Shown here: piece after piece, positions 1-36,049 of the stretch
Numbering within the stretch: the first letter of the stretch is position 1
Layout: each line of letters begins with the position of its first letter
NCBI GenBank assembly: GCA_963707125.1
Contig: CAVPOU010000007.1
Location: 22,333-86,332 of the forward strand
Length of the DNA: 64,000 nucleotides
Origin: an uncultured delta proteobacterium
GTDB taxonomy: Bacteria > Desulfobacterota > DSM-4660 > Desulfatiglandales > HGW-15
Direction: 5' to 3'
The notes under the pieces: model-generated
Told to the model about the DNA's origin: nothing
The model's database searches: none
What the model saw: the letters and a program-made list of their open reading frames with translations, nothing else
Made by a program: the position numbers and the translations under genes

Positions 1-630
1 ATTTCCTACATTTTGGCGGAGCATGCGCCAGAGAACGTAATGGATCTGCCCCGCCTCAATGTATGATTTCTTGAAGCGACGAATCATGGGCGCCAGGGCT
101 TCGGCGCGCATCTGATCCCGAACCAGGAATCTCCGGCTGTCGACCCGGGCAAAACGTTTGACGCTCTCCAGGGTTTCTTCGAATGAACCGGCGGTCGCGG
201 TTTTGTAAAAATCCAGAAGTGCGGCGGTCGCCTGTTTTTCTGCAAGGTAAACCTCGTACTGGACGTGATGAGGATCAAGCTTTTCCGGGGAGCCGCCTGA
301 AGAGAAGAACTCATGAATGGCTACAAGATGCTCCAGGTAAGGCTCCACCTGGTAAATGGAAATGCCCATAACGCTCAGTTCACGGAGCGCGAGGCACATG
401 GAGTGAATGAAGGCCGGGTATTCGGCGTCCAATGTCAGGACGTATTCCTCAACGGGAAGATCGCCTCTGAGCATTTGCTGAAAAGAGGCGTCGGGAGGCT
501 CTTCCAGGAAAACGGCTTCGTGGTCTCGCATCAAGGCCGCTGCATGGGGAACCGTTTCAGGTCGGTGTTCGGCCAGGACAAGGGTGGCGCGTGCAAGCAT
601 GGTCATAAGGAGAAGATCCTTGACGTTCAT
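1..630 (-). CDS. hypothetical protein; 3' end runs off the left edge of the window
   Basis: My own reverse-strand translation is open from ATG at 630-628 to position 1 (MNVKDLLLMTMLARATLVLAEHRPETVPHAAALMRDHEAVFLEEPPDASF...). It is absent from the ORF track because there is no stop inside the window. Forward ORFs 183-371 and 313-666 look like antisense shadows. Confidence 0.45.
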   Translation of the reverse strand, partial: MNVKDLLLMTMLARATLVLAEHRPETVPHAAALMRDHEAVFLEEPPDASFQQMLRGDLPVEEYVLTLDAEYPAFIHSMCLALRELSVMGISIYQVEPYLEHLVAIHEFFSSGGSPEKLDPHHVQYEVYLAEKQATAALLDFYKTATAGSFEETLESVKRFARVDSRRFLVRDQMRAEALAPMIRRFKKSYIEAGQIHYVLWRMLRQNVGN

Positions 631-832
631 CCATTCATGGCAGTGCCGAATCGTGCGAAGCCATAGAAAAGGCACGGGATGGGCGTAAAACCCGGCACAA
701 AAAGAAGCATTGGGGGTCTCCAGGACTTCAATCTGTGATATGATACAAATTATATTCCGTTTCGCTGGGCAGGGGAAGAAAGGAAGCGCTAGGAAATCAT
801 TTTTTCGGTTGGTTGTTGTAGGAGGGAAGCAC

Positions 833-1672
833 ATGGGAATTATGGATTACTTCAAGCCGGTAGATACCTGGTCCCCGGACAAGGTCCGGCAGTTCTTAAA
901 TGAAGAGAGCCCCCAGGACTACAACCTGGTGGATGTGAGGACCCCGAAAGAATACGAAGAGGGGCACCTGCCCGGGGCACAGCTGATTCCCGTGGGAGAA
1001 CTGGAATCCCGGTTGAAGGAGCTGGACAGGACCAAGCCCACGATCACTTACTGAGCGGCCGGCGTACGCAGCCGGGCCGCTGCCGCAGTCCTTTCGCGGG
1101 AGGGTTTCAAGGAGGCCTACAGCATGGAGGGCGGGATTCGTGCCTGGAACGGTCTTAGAGCGGCCGGTCCTCCGGAGGCCGGGATGGCCTATTTCGATCC
1201 GGCCAAGAAGCCGGAGGAGATGATCGCCCTCGCGTGGATGCTGGAGGAGGGGGCTTGCAGGTTCTACAGGGAAATGGGGAAAAGGCACAAGGGTCCGGAT
1301 GAAGCAGCGCTTTTCCGGGAACTGTCGGATGATGAAGAGAAACACAAATCCTCCCTTTTCAAAATCTACCAGAGACGGACCGGCAAGGATGCGGACCCTG
1401 GATTTCCGCGTTCACTCCTCTCCCTAGAATCAGGGGTCGATTATCTGGAGGGCGGGGTGGTCTTGAACAAGGCCCTGGAGTGGGCTCAGGGTCAAGAGCT
1501 GAAAGACATCCTGGACTTTTCTGTTTCTCTGGAGGTGAACGCCACAGATCTCTACATCAAGATGGAGCGCAAAGTGGAGGGAGAAGACGCGAAAGAGGTT
1601 TTTCAGGCCCTGTCCAATCAGGAGAGAAACCACCTGAAGCGGCTTACCGCCGGTCTTCAAAAAGATTGGTAG
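833..1672 (+). CDS. rhodanese-domain / ferritin-like (two ExxH) fusion protein with in-frame UGA at 1052-1054 (candidate selenocysteine)
   Basis: GGAGGG at 821-826 lies 6 nt before ATG 833. Track ORFs ending at 1054 and starting at 1124 are in the same frame (291 nt apart), with no other stop between them. The context KPTITY-UGA-AAGVRSRAAAAVL...GGIRAWNG matches the rhodanese C-x2-G-x-R-S active-site loop. The C-terminal half has LEEGA / DEEKH / LEVNA / QERNH, a diiron four-helix-bundle pattern. Confidence 0.7.
1055..1080 (+). promoter_or_regulatory. GC-rich hairpin directly 3' of the UGA (candidate bacterial SECIS)
   Basis: GCGGCCGGC (1055-1063), loop GUACGCA, then GCCGGGCCGC (1071-1080): 9 bp with one bulged G. 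An overlapping alternative is GCAGC-CGGGCC-GCUGC. Folded by eye only. Confidence 0.4.
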
Positions 1673-1771
1673 CGTTCAAAAGTGGTTCCATAGGCTTAAA
1701 ACATGATAACAGAAACAACGGGAAACGCTGAATGTCTCGGAACCCGAAATTCATTTGATGGAGGGTGGATC

Positions 1772-2212
1772 ATGGAAATTAAAAAGATACTCTGGGCAAC
1801 AGACCTCTCAGAGAATGCCGGCAAGGCGCTACCTCTGGTTACGTCCCTTTCCGAGAGATACCAGACGGAAGTCCACGTGGTATATGTCTTGGAGGAGTTT
1901 GGGCATTTCGGCGCCTGGTACGGCGAATTCGATCGAACTGAGATCGAAAAGATGCAGGAACTGGAGAGGAAACAGGCCGAGGAGAAGCTAGACGAAATCT
2001 GCATGCTTCATCTGGACCGTTGCCCACTCTACATTCGGCACACGGCTGTGGGGGACCCTGCCAACGAAATCCTTAAGCTCGTTGAGAAGGAAAGAGCGGA
2101 TTTGGTGGTGATTGCCAGCCGCGGCCGGAAGAGCCACTTTGATTTCGGAAGCGTGGCTGAAAAGATCGTAAGGCACTCTCCGGCGCCGGTTCTAGTAATA
2201 CCTGCCAGGTAG
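1772..2212 (+). CDS. universal stress protein (UspA family)
   Basis: MEIKKILWATDLSENAGKALP...DLVVIASRGRKSHFDFGSVAEKIVRHSPAPVLVIP is a typical Usp fold signature. GGAGGG lies upstream of ATG 1772. Confidence 0.8.
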   Translation: MEIKKILWATDLSENAGKALPLVTSLSERYQTEVHVVYVLEEFGHFGAWYGEFDRTEIEKMQELERKQAEEKLDEICMLHLDRCPLYIRHTAVGDPANEILKLVEKERADLVVIASRGRKSHFDFGSVAEKIVRHSPAPVLVIPAR

Positions 2213-2460
2213 AGAACGTATGCTGTGACGAGAGAGTTTCCAGGTACAGTTCGTTTCTTTGGCTCAATGTGCACCGGCGATTATAAAAGAATATAAATCT
2301 GAGAACCGGCCGGACAACCCCATCCTCCTTCTTGCTTTTTTCAGCGGCGAGGTTTATCCCGCCCCACTAAATCCTTGCGGGCTCGTCCCCTGCGGGGCCT
2401 GACTCCCCATCCCAGGGGATTTGTGGTACAAGTAGCTAACCATTGAGGGAGGTGTTTTGT

Positions 2461-3318
2461 ATGGATAAAAGGAGAGGGCTGGCACTGGTTACGGGAGCGA
2501 GCAGCGGTACGGGACGAGAAACCGCGAAGCGACTGGCTGAGAAAGGATTTGACGTGATCGTTGCGGCAAGGCGCAAGGAACGCCTCGAAGAACTTGCCTC
2601 TCAATACAAAAGCATCACCCCCAGAGAGCTGGATCTCTCGAAGCAGGCAAAGGTGAAGACTTTTTGTGAATACCTTTCGACTTTGCCCGGACCTGTATCC
2701 GTCCTGATCAATAATGCAGGGTACAGCATCCGGGGCGCCTTAGAGGATGTGCCGCCGGAGGCAGTCAGACGGGTCTTTCAGGTCAATCTGTTTTCTTTGA
2801 TTCAAATTACCCAGGCGTGCTTGCCTGCGATGCGTAAACAGAGAAAGGGCAGGATCGTGAACGTCAGCTCTATGGCAGGTAAGTTCGTCTTCCCCATGAG
2901 CGGAGTTTATGCGGCAACGAAGCATGCGCTGGAGGCTGTTACGGACGCGCTGCGCCTCGAAGTCGCCCCTTTCGGGATCAAGGTTGTGGCCATTCGCCCA
3001 GGCTTTGTTGCCACGGAGTTCAACGATGCGGCCAATCGTATCACGGGGGACCTCATGGCAAAGACAGACCCTGACTATAAGATTCTTTATCAGACGGCGG
3101 CCACGGGAGTCGGAAAGCTGTTTGTGAATGCGACCGTGCCCGGTCCCGGCTCGATTGCCGATCTCATTCTGGAGGCTGTTCTTTCAGAAAACCCCAGGGT
3201 GGTCTACTCAGGCGGCTTCCTGAGTCAGGAGATTCTGGGCAAGCGCTTTCAGCTGGACGATGAAGGGTTCCACCGGTTCATGGGTGAACTCACAGGGCTG
3301 GGGGTCTTGCGGGTATGA
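2461..3318 (+). CDS. short-chain dehydrogenase/reductase (SDR)
   Basis: LVTGASSGTGRETAKRL (TGxxxGxG), NNAG, and S...YAATKHAL (YxxxK) motifs are present. Confidence 0.85.
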   Translation: MDKRRGLALVTGASSGTGRETAKRLAEKGFDVIVAARRKERLEELASQYKSITPRELDLSKQAKVKTFCEYLSTLPGPVSVLINNAGYSIRGALEDVPPEAVRRVFQVNLFSLIQITQACLPAMRKQRKGRIVNVSSMAGKFVFPMSGVYAATKHALEAVTDALRLEVAPFGIKVVAIRPGFVATEFNDAANRITGDLMAKTDPDYKILYQTAATGVGKLFVNATVPGPGSIADLILEAVLSENPRVVYSGGFLSQEILGKRFQLDDEGFHRFMGELTGLGVLRV

Positions 3319-3463
3319 TGAGCAAACCCTTGGAAAGATCAAGGAAAGGATCAACCGGTTTTACTTTGAGTGAAGTGTGACTTTGCGCTGTTTCGGCCGG
3401 CATCCGGAGCCTGTTTTATTGTCAACTCTTTTGTTCTTGCTTTGTTGTGGAGGAGGCAAAAAA

Positions 3464-3673
3464 TGGGAATTCTGGATTATTTCAAGCCGGTGGATACCTG
3501 GCCCCCGGATGAGGTCCGGCAGTTCTTGAATGATAGGAGCCCTAAGGAATACAAGTGGTTGATGTGAAGAGTTTCAAAGAGTACGAAGAAAAGGAAGAGA
3601 AAGCGAAGAAGATATTTGACTCACCGCAGTACTTCAAAAAAACGGGCCATTCATTGCCCGGTGGGAGAAACTC
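3464..3673 (+). pseudogene. decayed duplicate of the 5' end of the rhodanese gene at 833
   Basis: About 125 nt (with a similar RBS region) are ~80% identical by eye to 833-960 (MGILDYFKPVDTWPPDEVRQFLNDRSPKEY vs MGIMDYFKPVDTWSPDKVRQFLNEESPQDY). A 1-nt gap shifts the frame (..VVDVKSFKEYEE in the next frame) and similarity then ends. No active-site loop is present. Confidence 0.5.
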
Positions 3674-4156
3674 ATGAGCGAGGGCGGACTGAAGCAGGCC
3701 AGGCAATTGACCAGCGAGGGGTTTCATTATGATAACCTCGTCGAAATGGCAAAACACTGCCGTGAGGAGACTGATCCCGAAAGGATTTTGAGCGCCTACA
3801 TCCTGAATCGCGTTTTGTCTGATCTGGCGGCAGAACTTGGGGATGGCATCGTGCTCACCGACGAACTGCGCAAGCTGGAGGCCAAATACCGAACCGCCCT
3901 GAATCTCGCGCTTGAAAGCGCGGAGGCAGGGGCACCCCAGGAAGAGCAGAACAGAAGGCTGAACGGATCTCGTCCAGACTGCTGTGGACTTCTGAAGAGA
4001 CAGCGTAAACCTCTGAGTCAGCGGAGGGAAGATCGATGGATAGCGTGCGTTCACAGCCTGTGCTGGTCACGGGCTCCACAGGGTACGTGGGTGGGAGGCT
4101 GGTACCGCAGCTTTTGTCCTCGGGGCACCGGGTGCGCGTCCTGGGCCGGTCTGTAG
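3674..4156 (+). CDS. hypothetical protein (3' end doubtful)
   Basis: The ORF-track protein MSEGGLKQARQLTSEGFHYDNLVEMAKH... has a helical-looking first ~95 aa. Its last 120 nt overlap the next gene in another frame. A +1 shifted frame would instead stop at TAA ~4007-4009, just before the GGAGGG of the next gene. Confidence 0.3.
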   Translation: MSEGGLKQARQLTSEGFHYDNLVEMAKHCREETDPERILSAYILNRVLSDLAAELGDGIVLTDELRKLEAKYRTALNLALESAEAGAPQEEQNRRLNGSRPDCCGLLKRQRKPLSQRREDRWIACVHSLCWSRAPQGTWVGGWYRSFCPRGTGCASWAGL

Positions 4157-10304: not shown

Positions 10305-10374
10305 CTTAAACGACCTCCTCCTAAAAGATTGAATCGCCTTGAAAAAGAATTCTTATAACAAAACAACCGACAGC

Positions 10375-10600
10375 TCAAGAGCGCGCATGCCGAAGGGCAT
10401 CGGCCAGCTTTTGATAGATGACCAGCAGCTCGTCCCCCGGGTTCATCGAGCGGTCGGGGCTCCAGATGGCAGCGATCTCCTTGTCCTCAATTTCCAGGCG
10501 CCGGCAGAGCAGCCGGGCCTGGTGCCAGGTCGGCAACCAGACCAGTTTCTCGCAGATGGCTTCGATGCTGCCGAATATGCTGATGAATCGCGGTAGACTC
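10375..10600 (-). other. coding-looking small reading frame without a canonical start, upstream of the radical SAM gene
   Basis: Reverse frame ..LSLPRFISIFGSIEAICEKLVWLPTWHQARLLCRRLEIEDKEIAAIWSPDRSMNPGDELLVIYQKLADALRHARS*. An ATG (MKLFILS*) sits one frame off, across T-runs. Confidence 0.25.
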
Positions 10601-10699
10601 AGGATAAAATAAAGAGTTTCATGGTTCCGCTAAAACTGATAGCTATCATTTGTGTATTGGTGCGGCAATAGCAAACATGATAATATATCCATTTAGGGC

Positions 10700-12374
10700 G
10701 TGCGCTCTATGAGTTATTTCAGGAAAGAGCTGGCGAGACGGCAGGTGAAGGCAGGCGGCCGGCGCTGGCTTTTTGTCCCCTATGATCAACTGACTGATGA
10801 GATTGGGCCTCTCTCCCGGGAGGACCCAAGGAGCCTAGGCATCGTCCTCGTGGAGAATCCGTGGAAGGCGGCCCGGCGGCCCTATCACAAACAGAAACTC
10901 GCTCTTGTTATTTCCAACCTCCGCCATTTCGCCCTTGAGCAGGCCGATAGGGGCGTGGCCGTCCGGCGCGTGATTGCTGAAGGTCCCTATGCCAAAGCTC
11001 TCGAATCCCTCATTCCCGAGTTGGGCACACTGAGAGTCATGGTGCCTGCAGAAAGGGAACTCAGGTCGGATCTCGCGAGACTCGCGAACCAAGGATCTCT
11101 CCAGTTCCTTCCCCATGAGGGATGGCTTTCAACCTCCGAACAGTTCAGAGAAAGCGATACTAAAGCCCCTCCCTGGAAGATGGACAAGTTTTATCGTTTT
11201 ATACGGCGTGCCACCGGCGTGCTCATGGAGGGTGAGAAACCGGTTGGGGGAAGATACAGTTTTGATGTGGAGAACAGGCTCCCATGGCATGGTAAACCGG
11301 CTTCGCCCGAGCCACCTTCCTTTCCGAGAGATCCCATCAAGGAGGAGGTTGGAGAACTTGTTAGGAAGTTCTTCGCCCGTCATCCAGGCCAACTGGACCT
11401 GGATGCTCTCCCCGCCACCAGAAAGGATGCTGAAAAACTCTGGTCTTGGGCCAAGGCAGAGTGCCTGCCCCTTTTCGGTCCCTACGAAGACGCCATGTCC
11501 CATAGGTCCGGGAGCCTTTTCCACACCCGCATCTCATCCCTTCTGAACATCCACAGGCTGTTGCCATCCCGCGTAATCTCTGATGTGGCGGGCATGAGTT
11601 TGCCACTAGGAAAGCAAGGAGGGTTTCATCCGACAGATCCTGGGGTGGCGGGAGTTTGTCCGCCATGTTCATGAGGCCACCGATGGTTTTCGCAAACTGC
11701 CTGAAGGCAGGACCCCGGTTGAAAAAGCGCCCGGCGATGGGGGCTATCAGAAGTGGGCTGGAGAAATCTGGGGACTTGGGAAAAAGGCCAAGGGACCGGA
11801 TGGGGGCGCAGCCCCATGTGCCCTTAGCTGTGACACTCCGCTGCCTCCTGCGTATTGGGGGGAGCGGTCAGGGCTGGCCTGCCTGGACACCGTGGTTTCG
11901 GATGTTTGGACCGAAGGATACAGCCACCACATCACGCGGCTCATGATCCTTTCCAACCTGGCGACCCTGCTTGACGTGAGCCCAAGGGAACTCACGGACT
12001 GGTTCTGGGTCGCATACACCGATGCCTATGATTGGGTGGTGGAGCCCAATGTCCTTGGCATGGGTACCTATGCCTTGGCCGGTCTCATGACCACGAAACC
12101 CTATGTGTCGGGCGCGGCTTACATCAACAGGATGAGCGATTACTGCGGCCTCTGCGCTTTTGATCCCAAGACCGATTGCCCATTCGCCTCGCTCTACTGG
12201 GCATTTCTGGCAAGACACGAAGCGGCGCTCAAAAACAATCCCCGTCTCACGATGCCCATGGCCTTCCTTCGCAAACGAGGGGCAAGTCGAAAGAAAAAGG
12301 ATCAGGAAGTGTACAGAATAGTCAGGGATATCCTCGTGAAAGGGGAGCGCATCAGTCCAAAAAGCCTTTCATGA
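10700..12374 (+). pseudogene. cryptochrome/photolyase-related protein (COG3046, FeS-BCP / bacterial (6-4) photolyase-like), frameshifted near 11609
   Basis: The N-terminal part WLFVPYDQLTDEIGPLS... ends out of frame at ..MSLPLGKQGGFH. The next frame continues ..SKEGFIRQILGWREFVRHVHE...GYSHHITRLMILSNL...DYCGLCAFDPKTDCPF (CxxC-x7-C) to 12374. Deleting one G at 11609/11610 fuses the two parts. Confidence 0.75.
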
Positions 12375-12498: not shown

Positions 12499-14681
12499 AT
12501 CGTGGCCTCTCCGATGATGACGATCCCCAGATGCCCGTCCACGGTGATGAAGTCCCCTGTCTTTATCTGGTTGACCGCGTCCGGGACTCCTGTCACACAG
12601 GGGATACCGTACTCCCGTGCGATGATGGCCCCATGGATGAGCATGCCCCCCCGCCTCTCAACGATTGCCGCGGCAAGGGGAACCACGAAAGTCATTCCGG
12701 GATCTACTGCATCACACACGAGGATCTCCCCCTTTTGAAAACTAAAAAGGTCTGAGGAGTCGAGCACGACCCTCGCTTTTCCCATAGCCATTCCGGGTCC
12801 GGCAGGCTGACCCAGAATCTGTCTCGACTTGAGCGAGAAAGTTTTCTTTTTAGCGGGTTGCTGCGCGTCTTGATCGCCCTTGTGGGCCGGCGACTCGCTT
12901 TGCACAGCCTTGAACAGGTCGTCGATTTCTACGGCCTTGCTATCACGCATGGACCTTCCCTGGGTGCGCCGGCGGCCTTCCTCCACTGCGGCCAGCACCT
13001 GGCCCTGGATCTTGTCCAGGTAGATGTTGTCATCATCCCTTAGCCGATAGCTGGCCCGGGCCAGATCGAGGAGTTCAAGGGCATAAGACTTCTGCTCTTC
13101 GTCAAAACGAGATAAGAAGTCCTTTTCCAATTCTCCTGGATCTCCGGCTCTTGCGGATGTTCCCCGCTCAGGGCGGGAGGCCATTTGCAGAACCAGTTTC
13201 AGAAGTCTGTCCCTGTCCTCGCCCAATCGACCCTTCTCCCATGCCAGGTCTCCGAATTGATCCAGAACCCGCTTCAGCCCTTTCTTGACCTCCGGTTTGC
13301 AATCATCCCCTTTACCTTCCAGGATGCAGGCCTTGTTGCTCGGGTCTTTTCTGATCAGCTCAGCGAGGTCCACCAGCATTTGATTTCTCCGCACACTGAC
13401 CATGCCGGAGCCTGCTAAGAGCGATACGAACTGAAAGGGATCCTTGGGTTTCATGAGGTCATTGTAGATCTTGCCAAACAGCCTCATGCCGTGGGCAAAG
13501 GGAATACAGTCGCGCCTGTAAGTCTCCAGCCACTCTTTGTGGATACGGCTTCGCTGACCTATCTCCTGTGCGAGGACTGAATCCGAAAGGGCAGGGAGAT
13601 TCACCATGCCCATCTCACGGGCCACCGTTTCCATTCCGGGTATGAGTTCCTTCTCGATTTTTGTCCGAAGACCTCTCAGATTGTCAAAGCTCCTGTGAAG
13701 ACTGAGATACCAGGGGCGCTGGTCCTCTGATGATGGGGCAGGAGTCGTAATGGGTCGAGCCTGAAGCGCATGGAGGATTTCCTTGCAATAGGTCCACTCA
13801 ACGTCCTGAGGGGAGCCGAACAATGCCTCTGCCTTCATGACAAGCCCATAGACCTCTTTGACTTCCCTATCCCTGAGAGGGGCGCGATGACGAAGGGTGC
13901 CCTGGAGATTCTCTAATCGGACACCCTGCGGCCCAGGCACCAGGATCTTTTCTCTGCGGGCAGGATGATGAGACAGGATCTTCCCGCTGTCCCGATTCAA
14001 GATCCATCGGTCCGGTTCCACTGTCCCGTCTACCAGTCCCTGATTGAGCCCGTAGACGGCCTCTACGGCGGATTGCTTCTCATGGATCGGGCTCATGCCG
14101 AAGACGACCCCTGAGCGTTCCCCAAAGACCATCTCCTGGACCACCACCGCCATGGTGCTTTTCTCCACATCAAGGCCCAACTCCTGCCGGTAGAGAAGAG
14201 CCCGATCAGACCACAGGGAAGCCCACACGAGCTTGATGTTCTCCAAAATGGATTCCAGGCCCCGGATATTGACAAAGGATTCATGGAGGCCTGCGAAGGA
14301 TGTCTTGGAAGAGTCCTCGCCGGGAGCCGAGGACCTGACTGAGACTGGCCGCCGGGAAAACCGAGAGGCGAGGAGGGGCCTCAGTTGTTTCCGGAGTTCG
14401 CTCGGTAGAGGTGTCTTGATAAACATGTTTCGGATGCGAAGGGCCGTGTCCCAGATCTCCTCCCATCGCATCTCTTCAAATGGCTTGCGGTAGAGCTCCA
14501 TGTGCATCTGATCCCGCAGGCCCGTTGATGTTACGTACTCGTGATAGGCTTCCGTGCTTATGCAGATTGCCTCAGGAATCTGCATTCCGCTTTTTTGCAT
14601 GGCAGCCAGGGCAAAGCCCTTGCCGCCGACACGCGAGCGGTCGCTTTGGGTGACTTCATGAAGGGGGAGGGCTAGCTTCAT
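12492..14681 (-). CDS. PEP-utilising-enzyme family protein: N-terminal PPDK-type ATP-grasp plus C-terminal swivel phosphohistidine domain, no TIM-barrel domain
   Basis: RVGGKGFALAAMQKSGMQIPEA at the N-terminus; GEILVCDAVDPGMTFVVPLAAAIVERRGGMLIHGAIIAREYGIPCV at the C-terminus. The start is taken at ATG 14681, which overlaps the upstream stop (ATGA). Confidence 0.8.
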   Translation of the reverse strand: MKLALPLHEVTQSDRSRVGGKGFALAAMQKSGMQIPEAICISTEAYHEYVTSTGLRDQMHMELYRKPFEEMRWEEIWDTALRIRNMFIKTPLPSELRKQLRPLLASRFSRRPVSVRSSAPGEDSSKTSFAGLHESFVNIRGLESILENIKLVWASLWSDRALLYRQELGLDVEKSTMAVVVQEMVFGERSGVVFGMSPIHEKQSAVEAVYGLNQGLVDGTVEPDRWILNRDSGKILSHHPARREKILVPGPQGVRLENLQGTLRHRAPLRDREVKEVYGLVMKAEALFGSPQDVEWTYCKEILHALQARPITTPAPSSEDQRPWYLSLHRSFDNLRGLRTKIEKELIPGMETVAREMGMVNLPALSDSVLAQEIGQRSRIHKEWLETYRRDCIPFAHGMRLFGKIYNDLMKPKDPFQFVSLLAGSGMVSVRRNQMLVDLAELIRKDPSNKACILEGKGDDCKPEVKKGLKRVLDQFGDLAWEKGRLGEDRDRLLKLVLQMASRPERGTSARAGDPGELEKDFLSRFDEEQKSYALELLDLARASYRLRDDDNIYLDKIQGQVLAAVEEGRRRTQGRSMRDSKAVEIDDLFKAVQSESPAHKGDQDAQQPAKKKTFSLKSRQILGQPAGPGMAMGKARVVLDSSDLFSFQKGEILVCDAVDPGMTFVVPLAAAIVERRGGMLIHGAIIAREYGIPCVTGVPDAVNQIKTGDFITVDGHLGIVIIGEATIH

Positions 14682-34138: not shown

Positions 34139-36049
34139 TCATTTCTTCACTTCTTCGAAATCCGCATCGACCACATCCTCGTCCTTCTTTGAGGCGCCGC
34201 CGCCCTGCGGTTCGCCGCCTCCGGCGCCTGCGTGTGCCTGCTGGGAGGCGCGGGAGTACATCATCTCTGCGAGCTTATGGGAGGTCTGGGTGAGCTCGTC
34301 GGAGAGGCGCTTGATCTCCTCCGTATTATCCCCCTCCATGGCCTTCTTGAGCTTTTCGATGCCCCGGTCCACGTCGCCCTTGGTCGTCGCATCGACCTTG
34401 TCCCCGAGTTCCTTAATGGATTTCTCGGTGGAGTAGATCATGGAATCCGCCATGTTGCGCGCATCCACCAGCTCCCTTTTCTTCTTGTCCTCTTCAGCGT
34501 GAAGCTCCGCGTCCTTCACAAGGTTCTTAATCTCTTCCTCGGAAAGGCCGCTGGATGCCGTGATGCGGATGGACTGTTCTTTGCTGGTTCCCAGATCCTT
34601 GGCCGAGACATTGACGATGCCGTTTGCATCGATGTCAAAGGTCACCTCAATCTGGGGGAGCCCTCTCGGCGCTGCTGGAATTCCGACGAGCTGGAAGCGG
34701 CCGAGCGTCTTGTTGCTTGCCGCCATCTCCCGTTCTCCCTGAAGCACGTGGATTTCCACAGCCGGCTGATTGTCGGCCGCCGTGGAAAAGATCTGGCTTT
34801 TTCTCGTCGGAATGGTGGTGTTCTTGTCGATCAATTTGGTGAAAACGCCGCCGAGAGTCTCAATCCCCAGAGAGAGAGGCGTCACGTCGAGAAGAAGGAC
34901 GTCCTTGACCTCCCCTTTCAAAACACCGGCCTGAATCGCGGCGCCCGCAGCGACGACCTCATCAGGGTTCACGTTCTTGCTGGGCTCTTTGCCGAAGAGC
35001 TCCTTCACTTTCTGCTGAACCTTGGGCATCCGGGTCATGCCTCCGACCAGAATGACTTCATCAAGGTCAGAGAGTTTGAGCCCTGAGTCTTTGATGGCGA
35101 TGTTGCAGGGCCCAACCATTTTTTCAATGAGGTCATCCACCAGGGCTTCCAGCTTGGCCCGGGTGAGCTTTATGTTGAGATGCTTGGGCCCTGTAGCGTC
35201 CGCAGTGATAAAAGGCAGATTGATGTCTGTTTCCTGGGAAGAGGAGAGCTCCATTTTTGCTTTCTCAGCGGCTTCCTTCAGCCGCTGCAAAGCCATTTTG
35301 TCTGTCCTCAGATCAATGCCCTGGTCCTTCTTGAATTCATTGGCCAGATAATCCACCACCCGCAAGTCAAAATCTTCACCTCCCAGGTGGGTGTCCCCGT
35401 TGGTCGACTTGACTTCAAAGACCCCTTCTCCGATCTCCAGGATGGAGATATCAAAGGTCCCGCCGCCCAGATCAAAGACGGCGATCTTCTTGTCACCCTT
35501 CTTGTCCACACCGAAAGCAAGAGAGGCAGCCGTCGGCTCATTGATGATTCTCAACACATTCAGGCCGGCGATCCGGCCCGCATCCTTGGTCGCCTGCCTC
35601 TGGCTGTCATTGAAGTAGGCGGGTACCGTGATGACCGCTTCCGTCACCTTCTCACCGAGATAATCCTCTGCCGTCTGTTTCATCTTGGTGAGGATCATCG
35701 AGGATATCTCCGAAGGGCTGTACGCTTGCCCTCTGGCCGTCACGTGAGCATCGCCGTTCTGCGCCTTCACGATTTTGTAGGGAAGGACTTTGATGTCTTG
35801 CTGAACTTCTCCTGAGTCAAATTTGCGGCCGATCAATCTCTTGACTGCGGAAACCGTGTGGTCAGGATTGGTGATGGCCTGCCTTTTGGCTATCTGCCCG
35901 ACGAGTCTTTCTCCCTTATCGGTGAAGGCGACAATGGAGGGAGTGGTTCGGCTTCCCTCCGCATTGGCGATAACGACCGGGTCCCCACCCTCCATGATGG
36001 CCACGCACGAATTGGTCGTTCCAAGATCAATACCAATAACTTTTCCCAT
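34139..36049 (-). CDS. dnaK: molecular chaperone DnaK
   Basis: [33 protein letters not shown]. Confidence 0.95.

Follow-up and report, generated by a model that had tools for sequence, protein, structure and literature searches.

Work by Zhang and Gladyshev from 2005 is reportedly one of the original sources for rhodanese-like selenoproteins. The selenoproteome of the Sargasso Sea also counts among the original sources of these proteins (PMC1088965), and a 2026 review catalogues five forms of rhodanese-type selenoproteins, two of which (forms 2 and 4, 'rhodanese-related sulfurtransferase') carry a UxxG motif, with MBM9537886.1 and MCY3690685.1 as exemplar accessions (PMC13188914). The published members of this group, which abound in Deltaproteobacteria, are known solely as predictions from comparative genomics (PMC13188914), in line with the statement of a first-pass annotation of the DNA analysed here that rhodanese-type sulfurtransferases belong to the bacterial selenoprotein families. 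That DNA is a 64-kb stretch of contig CAVPOU010000007.1 from an uncultured delta proteobacterium, hereafter the window, and the subject of this work is a gene at its positions 833-1672 (+ strand), which encodes a rhodanese domain and, after it, a rubrerythrin-like diiron domain, with an in-frame UGA in the place of the catalytic Cys of the former. The stretch 833-1672 very probably constitutes one gene for a 279-residue selenoprotein, the decoding of which would depend on a hairpin at 1068-1083 and the function of which would link the selenol to the diiron site.

The reading frame of ATG 833 runs to TAG 1670-1672 through 279 codons, and its sole internal stop on translation is TGA 1052-1054, which is codon 74. 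The open reading frames (ORFs) 710-1054 and 1124-1672 are both in this frame, and the interval 1055-1123 is stop-free in it, so that translation of 833-1672 confirms the first-pass observation of two same-frame ORFs parted only by TGA 1052-1054. The TGA stands in the context KPTITY-UGA-AAGVRSRAAAAVLSREGF...GGIRAWNG, and a Shine-Dalgarno-like AGGAGG can be read from the sequence at 820-825 (+ strand), 7 nt 5' of ATG 833. When the translation of 833-1672, with Cys substituted at the internal stop, was searched against Pfam, Rhodanese PF00581 matched residues 14-106 (872-1150, + strand) with 76.4 bits (cut-off, 22.2) and with codon 74 inside the match, and Rubrerythrin PF02915 matched with 60.8 bits, the corresponding four-helix bundle lying at 1217-1651 (+ strand). 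Because the rhodanese model runs across codon 74, neither half-ORF represents a whole domain; moreover, tblastn matches cross the UGA and cover residues 1-277 in 44 loci. The active-site loop, U74-A-A-G-V-R-S80, conforms to the six-residue U/C-x-x-G-x-R-S loop pattern of the rhodanese superfamily, with G77, R79, and S80 conserved, and in the alignment to PDB entry 6mxv codon 74 coincides with the catalytic Cys of YCGGGFRS. The original proposal, in which the UGA belongs to one fused gene and replaces the catalytic Cys, is therefore upheld both by the span of PF00581 and by the Cys aligned in orthologues. TGA is the ordinary stop of many other ORFs in the window, such as the DnaK-like ORF 34139-36049, and therefore the genome is not one in which TGA has been reassigned; a scan of the whole window found 833-1672 to be the only UGA-split gene that joins two real ORFs. 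A promoter and terminator scan gave no signal above background.

The distribution of codons at position 74 carries most of the argument. The DNA set assembled for comparison comprised 80 loci, contigs of one genome per GTDB species, and the two-domain gene was present in 44 of them. Among these 44 species-level orthologues, codon 74 is TGA in 37 and TGC or TGT in the remaining 7, and in all 37 TGA orthologues the downstream frame is intact, at about 279 codons. The TGA forms span an identity range of 34-92% and come from metagenome-assembled genomes labelled Desulfobacteraceae, Desulfatiglandales, Syntrophaceae/Syntrophales, Desulfarculaceae, Thermodesulfovibrionia, Nitrospirota, Leptospirales, and Acidobacteriota. 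The Cys forms constitute two clades nested among the Sec (selenocysteine) forms in a rough neighbour-joining tree, which suggests, within the limits of such a tree, that Sec may have been replaced by Cys at least twice. The protein databases give the same picture. A search with the 279-residue sequence matched 676 proteins, and among the best 120 of these, 80 are fragments of 180-203 residues, 73-94% identical to the window protein, that start with VRSR, MRSR, or MEGG directly past the UGA position, while the other 40 are full-length (about 279 residues) and 48-56% identical, with an aligned Cys in 38 of the 40. The comparison of homologues that had been suggested at the outset thus found both UGA and Cys at codon 74. 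An in-frame UGA within a conserved domain, homologues with an aligned Cys, and retention of the UGA in orthologues are the features by which selenoproteins are recognised, and with these in place it is highly probable, as judged from the sequences, that UGA 1052-1054 (+ strand) is read as selenocysteine.

The UGA forms also share a small hairpin immediately downstream, which is proposed as the core of a bacterial selenocysteine insertion sequence (bSECIS). It occupies 1068-1083 (+ strand), with a stem formed by GCAGC 1068-1072 and GCUGC 1079-1083 and a loop, CGGGCC 1073-1078, that starts 18 nt after the UGA. RNAalifold returned for the 37 UGA forms a single consensus helix, +16..+20 paired with +27..+31, at -7.87 kcal/mol, and all 185 of its 185 cells are paired, four pairs being invariant and one C-to-U change leaving a G-U pair. 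Third codon positions are free on either side of the segment CGC AGC CGK GCN GCU GC and fixed inside it (+17 C in 36/37, +20 C in 37/37, and +29 U in 37/37), and the third-position entropy in 5-codon windows has its gene-wide minimum at codons 79-83 (0.58 bits versus a mean of 1.48), so that the synonymous-site constraint is located at 1067-1081. The codon of Ala83 is GCU in 37/37 Sec forms versus 1/7 Cys forms (Fisher p = 1e-6). A SECIS-like element is under selection only where the UGA is present.

In the bSECIS model, the loop has 3-9 nt and the stem 4-16 bp, the distance from the UGA is 16-37 nt, the minimum free energy (MFE) is <= -7.5 kcal/mol, and one of the first two loop nucleotides is G, with G/U after it (PMC13188914). 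The element at 1068-1083 fits this model in its stem of 5 bp, its loop of 6 nt, in which G at position 2 is followed by G, the 18-nt spacing already mentioned, and the consensus energy given by RNAalifold. In three of the orthologues (L021:536-583, L037:93-140, and L042:35-82), Ala82 is replaced by Ser with the codon UCG, and therefore the hairpin extends there to 7 bp with a 4-nt GGUC loop. GGUC is also the loop sequence of the E. coli fdhF SECIS. The window element resembles the bSECIS consensus and the fdhF SECIS in being a hairpin inside the ORF just 3' of the UGA, in its upper stem of 5 bp, in the small loop at its apex, which carries G and then G/U near its 5' side, and in the spacing of 18 nt; it differs from them in being very short and marginally stable, in the invariance of its stem, and in that a conserved lower stem and a bulged U are not evident.

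Several observations weigh against the reading of 833-1672 as a selenoprotein gene decoded through this hairpin. Taken alone, the 1068-1083 hairpin of the window reaches only -6.7 to -7.8 kcal/mol, which is borderline on the MFE criterion, and its stem pairs are essentially invariant and hence show zero compensatory covariation, so that the structure lacks this form of proof. In addition, neither RNAalifold, applied to several spans, nor a compatibility scan of all pairs detected a lower stem or covariation beyond the 5-bp helix. The MFE fold of the window sequence lacks the hairpin and favours another one at 1055-1080 or a different structure, and when the first 12-16 nt were blocked to represent occupancy by the ribosome, the 1068-1083 hairpin was still not the MFE structure in the window; therefore, thermodynamics alone does not select it. 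Moreover, no selA, selB, selD, or tRNA-Sec was seen in the 64-kb window or the fetched loci (for tRNA-Sec, the window and 48 loci; in the window, no sel-like ORF was recognised at all), so we infer the Sec-decoding trait of the source genome rather than observe it. Finally, there is no conserved operon around the gene that could point to a function, as an all-against-all BLAST of the ORFs from the 44 loci found that they share only the gene itself.

Among the other explanations, the one that survives best accepts the insertion of Sec and places the functional SECIS in the 9-10-bp hairpin at 1055-1080 (+ strand; arms 1055-1063/1071-1080), to which the first-pass annotation had drawn attention as a 9-bp GC hairpin starting immediately 3' of the UGA. 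This hairpin does exist in the window, with the loop GUACGCA that had been described; at -17.4 kcal/mol on its own it far exceeds every other local structure there in stability, it is the MFE structure of the window sequence, and its loop starts with GU. However, outside the window it is the MFE structure in the closest relatives, L002-L004, alone, and across the 37 UGA orthologues just 75% of its cells pair, a level that 210 of 500 column shuffles reach. Its loop begins 9 nt past the UGA, outside the 16-37 nt of the consensus model, and the synonymous constraint falls at 1067-1081, not at 1055-1063. With the UGA in the A site, the 5' arm of this hairpin (nt +3 to +11) should lie inside the ribosome, and its 3' part would therefore be free to form the smaller hairpin; since the two hairpins overlap, they are mutually exclusive. 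In the folding check proposed for the surroundings of the UGA, the 71-nt region folded no better than its shuffles (z = -0.34). The 1055-1080 hairpin was rejected as a SECIS for its poor conservation and wrong spacing, which makes this explanation unlikely, and it is probably, to judge by the alignment, a lineage-specific alternative structure and not a functional element, the conserved element being the one at 1068-1083.

A second explanation keeps translation through codon 74 and dispenses with selenocysteine, either by near-cognate suppression with Trp or Cys or by Cys delivered through the Sec machinery, the RNA element acting only as a stimulator. Two of the weaknesses described above speak in its favour, namely that no Sec machinery was seen in the window and that the 1068-1083 hairpin is short and marginally stable. 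Nevertheless, codon 74 alternates with Cys alone, and does so at the catalytic nucleophile, which is the signature of a Sec/Cys family; the hairpin fits the bSECIS geometry and has the G-[G/U] loop (PMC13188914), and UxxG rhodanese selenoproteins have already been catalogued. In addition, a gene with a UGA of the UxxC type is found on the contig of a close relative, L082 (ena:ERZ25039603:contig_24048). This thioredoxin-fold gene, at 10372-10944 on the minus strand, carries in its CxxC site an in-frame TGA (FNPG-U-IGC), is called as two ORFs of 33 and 151 aa, and lies 2.2 kb from an orthologue that is 82% identical to the gene studied here; no homologue of it is present in the window. It can be regarded as a candidate for a second selenoprotein with a classic UxxC site and would lend indirect support to Sec decoding. 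Read-through without selenocysteine is accordingly judged quite improbable.

A third explanation treats the locus as two separate genes, a 73-residue rhodanese fragment ending at 1054 and a ferritin-like protein of about 180-200 residues starting at ATG 1124 or at a GTG that occurs in homologues four codons past the TGA. This is how the gene callers of ENA, JGI, and NCBI split the locus, and there is a GGAGG at 1110-1114, 9 nt 5' of ATG 1124. However, the rhodanese domain extends to residue 106, and both products would thus contain broken domains; protein-level conservation extends over the 23 codons from the TGA to ATG 1124, among them those of the invariant R79 and S80; the supposed GTG is GTA in the window, and its third position in the orthologues is G in 24, A in 5, C in 4, and T in 4; and the Cys forms are single ORFs of 279 residues. 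The two-gene explanation is very improbable on these grounds, and a nonsense mutation, pseudogene, or sequencing error that turned TGC or TGT into TGA is scarcely credible, since the frameshifts of a related contig (L081), which are typical of assembly errors, and a decayed second copy of the gene in the window have to be set against the same-codon TGA of 37 independent assemblies from different species, with intact frames, a conserved protein, and a hairpin maintained at synonymous sites. Sequencing error, pseudogene, and two independent genes all fail as explanations because of the Sec/Cys pattern across the orthologues and the large family of fusions to which the gene belongs.

The C-terminal half of the protein contains the motifs LEEGA, DEEKH, LEVNA, and QERNH that had been recognised in the window sequence. 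The predicted ligands, all six of which proved to be invariant in 49 homologues, are E138 (codon 1244-1246), E168 (1334-1336), H171 (1343-1345), E234 (1532-1534), E264 (1622-1624), and H267 (1631-1633), with 30-residue spacings. Thus, the diiron bundle with E...ExxH twice that characterises rubrerythrins is present, whereas the C-terminal rubredoxin-like Fe(Cys)4 domain is absent: the protein ends at the fourth helix, there is no CxxC, and the only Cys beyond residue 74 is the non-conserved C142. Lacking the rubredoxin domain, this half of the protein resembles erythrin and cannot be counted as a true rubrerythrin. An insert at residues ~184-222 (of which ~192-222 correspond to 1406-1498 of the window) separates helices 2 and 3 and has invariant P192, E206, G207, and W217; these residues, which lie outside the canonical ligand set of rubrerythrins, are as conserved as the metal ligands, E206 being found in 117/122 representatives of the family.

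A profile search of 1.84 billion representative sequences returned 618 proteins at E <= 1e-30. Among the top 150 of these 618, 122 are full-length, with Cys74 in 120/122 and each diiron ligand kept in at least 117/122, and the fusion is hence carried by at least 122 clusters at 50% identity. The same search also matched P0123, P0145, P0204, and P0219, proteins of 820-3538 aa with 3-16 rhodanese-like repeats. The structure was approached through an AlphaFold2 model of the Cys homologue P0046, which is 56% identical to the window protein and stands in for it. The model is compact, with two domains and long helices at 127-151, 155-183, 223-247, and 251-278, and its mean predicted local distance difference test score of 92 and predicted template modelling score of 0.89 imply a fixed arrangement of the two domains. 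Foldseek found no solved structure that contains both domains. The nearest structures to the rhodanese domain are 3tp9, 3icr, 5ve3, and 3nta, that is, rhodanese domains fused to persulfide-handling enzymes, and the PDB entries nearest to the C-terminal domain are the uncharacterised 2fzf and TM1526 (1vjx). The first-pass annotation had described the combination of a Sec-rhodanese with a diiron domain as an architecture that it could not place. The fused gene that it proposed has been confirmed as a single unit, but the architecture itself is common, as the number of clusters indicates and as the names already given by JGI to the Cys forms reflect.

By analogy with other bacterial selenoprotein genes, SelB loaded with Sec-tRNA(Sec) would be recruited at UGA 1052-1054 by the hairpin 13 nt downstream, and selenocysteine would be inserted as residue 74, where it would serve as the catalytic nucleophile of the rhodanese loop U-A-A-G-V-R-S. 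The C-terminal bundle would bind a diiron centre through E138, E168/H171, E234, and E264/H267. The selenol might then take up sulfane sulfur, or become oxidised, and pass sulfur or electrons to and from the diiron site fused to it, so that the product could operate in anaerobes as an oxidoreductase of the rubrerythrin type, detoxifying peroxide or oxygen, or as one that processes persulfides, the Sec-rhodanese domain assuming the role that the rubredoxin domain plays in rubrerythrin. No single function is more than a tentative assignment. The first choice would be a peroxide or oxygen reductase of the rubrerythrin type in which the Sec-rhodanese acts as a redox relay; the second would be a persulfide oxidoreductase analogous to the persulfide dioxygenase-rhodanese fusion PRF or NADH persulfide reductase (NPSR); and the third would be a joint donor of iron and sulfur for the repair of Fe-S clusters. 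It is conceivable, albeit doubtful, that the protein belongs to an undescribed enzyme class in which a diiron-carboxylate centre has, in a selenol or selenopersulfide of the rhodanese loop, its direct partner for redox or sulfur chemistry, possibly a peroxide or oxygen reductase driven by sulfide or persulfide or an iron and sulfur donor that repairs Fe-S clusters in anaerobes, and that the family was ancestrally selenium-dependent, its Cys forms having been derived at least twice. In any case, a Sec or Cys carrier of sulfane sulfur tethered to a diiron centre suggests a chemistry that joins sulfur or selenium to the handling of peroxide, oxygen, or iron in anaerobes.

The gene is followed in the window by a gene for a universal stress protein (Usp) at 1772-2212 (+ strand; PF00582 at 88.6 bits), and the fusion 'followed by a Usp gene' had initially been regarded as a possible module. 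This part of the proposal did not hold. Outside the window, Usp and SDR genes lie 3' of the gene in L081 alone, the contig of which matches window positions 4-3380 with 97.6% identity, and the Usp gene is not adjacent in L001 or L002, which are 88-91% identical, or in 40 other loci; the direct 3' neighbour in L001 and L002 is the epimerase gene, found at 4036 in the window. The Usp link was thus rejected as a general feature, there being no shared neighbour among the 44 loci, and the Pfam contexts of four contigs also differ from one another. The Usp gene is a neighbour only. The surroundings in L081 include rubrerythrin, hemerythrin with encapsulin, MsrA, and Fur, and this oxidative-stress context weakly favours a stress or redox role, in a manner specific to that lineage. 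More precisely, L081 1417-5445, 5' of the gene, carries an encapsulin (Linocin_M18) with hemerythrin, a gene resembling 2-thiouracil desulfurase, and a canonical rubrerythrin (RUBY_RBDX); the matching region falls past the left end of the window. A gene of the 2-thiouracil desulfurase family also lies directly 5' of the orthologue in L082.

The window contains, in addition, a decayed second copy of the gene at 3464-3590 (+ strand), frameshifted and truncated to approximately the first 45 codons, which is 83% identical to 780-960 and has a 1-nt deletion. The remnant covers the ribosome-binding region and the start (MGILDYFKPVDTWPPDEVRQFLNDRSPKEYK...), and its position, beside the epimerase gene, is that of the single intact copy in L001 and L002. 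In L081 there is a second paralogue, UGA-containing and nearly full-length (13275-14112 of ena:ERZ25039461:contig_6422), to the start of which the remnant is 97% identical and which has its own TITY-TGA-AAGVRSR and an identical hairpin, GCAGCCGGGCCGCUGC. This second copy of L081 carries about three frameshifts, one of them common to the window remnant, and a Pyr_redox_2 gene that is missing from the window stands between it and the SDR gene. Elsewhere in the window, at 10700-12374 (+ strand), three consecutive and slightly overlapping ORFs (324, 96, and 160 aa) resemble one gene broken by frameshifts; taken with the frameshifts of L081, these ORFs hint at assembly errors like those of long reads, or else at genuine gene decay.

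The records of ENA, JGI, and NCBI divide the family into a 'rhodanese' of 73 aa and a 'ferritin family protein / rubrerythrin' of about 200 aa, no NCBIfam model covers it (every match lies far under its cut-off), and a database look-up of the 182-aa ORF of the window gave no record. In this way, a family widespread in anaerobes of the Desulfobacterota, Nitrospirota, and other groups is systematically misannotated as two genes. Moreover, the existence of the same gene with and without the UGA, the synonymous constraint being switched on and off with it, provides an unusually clean natural experiment on the SECIS, and the comparison of Sec and Cys forms delimits a minimal element of 16 nt.

A literature search found no publication on rhodanese, rubrerythrin, and selenocysteine in one protein. 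The gene is therefore best described as a variant within the already known rhodanese selenoproteins, of whose fusion to a diiron domain no characterised example was found. With the published forms 2 and 4 it shares Sec in place of the catalytic Cys in the PF00581 loop and the U-x-x-G motif, here U-A-A-G; it differs from them in its ferritin-like partner, since the catalogue gives PF00581 alone for these forms, with no rubrerythrin or ferritin-like domain, although the forms were compared by description, so that an overlap is possible. The Cys orthologues that JGI names 'rhodanese-related sulfurtransferase/rubrerythrin' agree with it in length (about 279 aa), domain order, active-site loop, and diiron ligands at 48-56% identity, and differ in having Cys for Sec and in that the synonymous constraint on the hairpin is gone. 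With the rubrerythrin/erythrin family (PF02915; 1vjx and 2fzf), the C-terminal domain has in common the four-helix bundle and E-x30-E-x2-H twice, with six ligands, whereas it is devoid of the rubredoxin-like FeS4 domain, has an N-terminal rhodanese domain instead, and contains the long conserved insert between helices. Finally, the best structure and sequence matches of the rhodanese domain are PRF (5ve3), CoADR-RHD (3icr), NPSR (3nta), and a beta-lactamase-fold/rhodanese protein (3tp9). In these proteins, as in the one studied here, a covalent link ties a carrier of sulfane sulfur to a redox domain with a metal or a flavin, but the window protein has a diiron-carboxylate bundle as partner instead of a mononuclear-iron PDO or flavoprotein, its rhodanese domain stands at the N-terminus, and its nucleophile would be selenocysteine.

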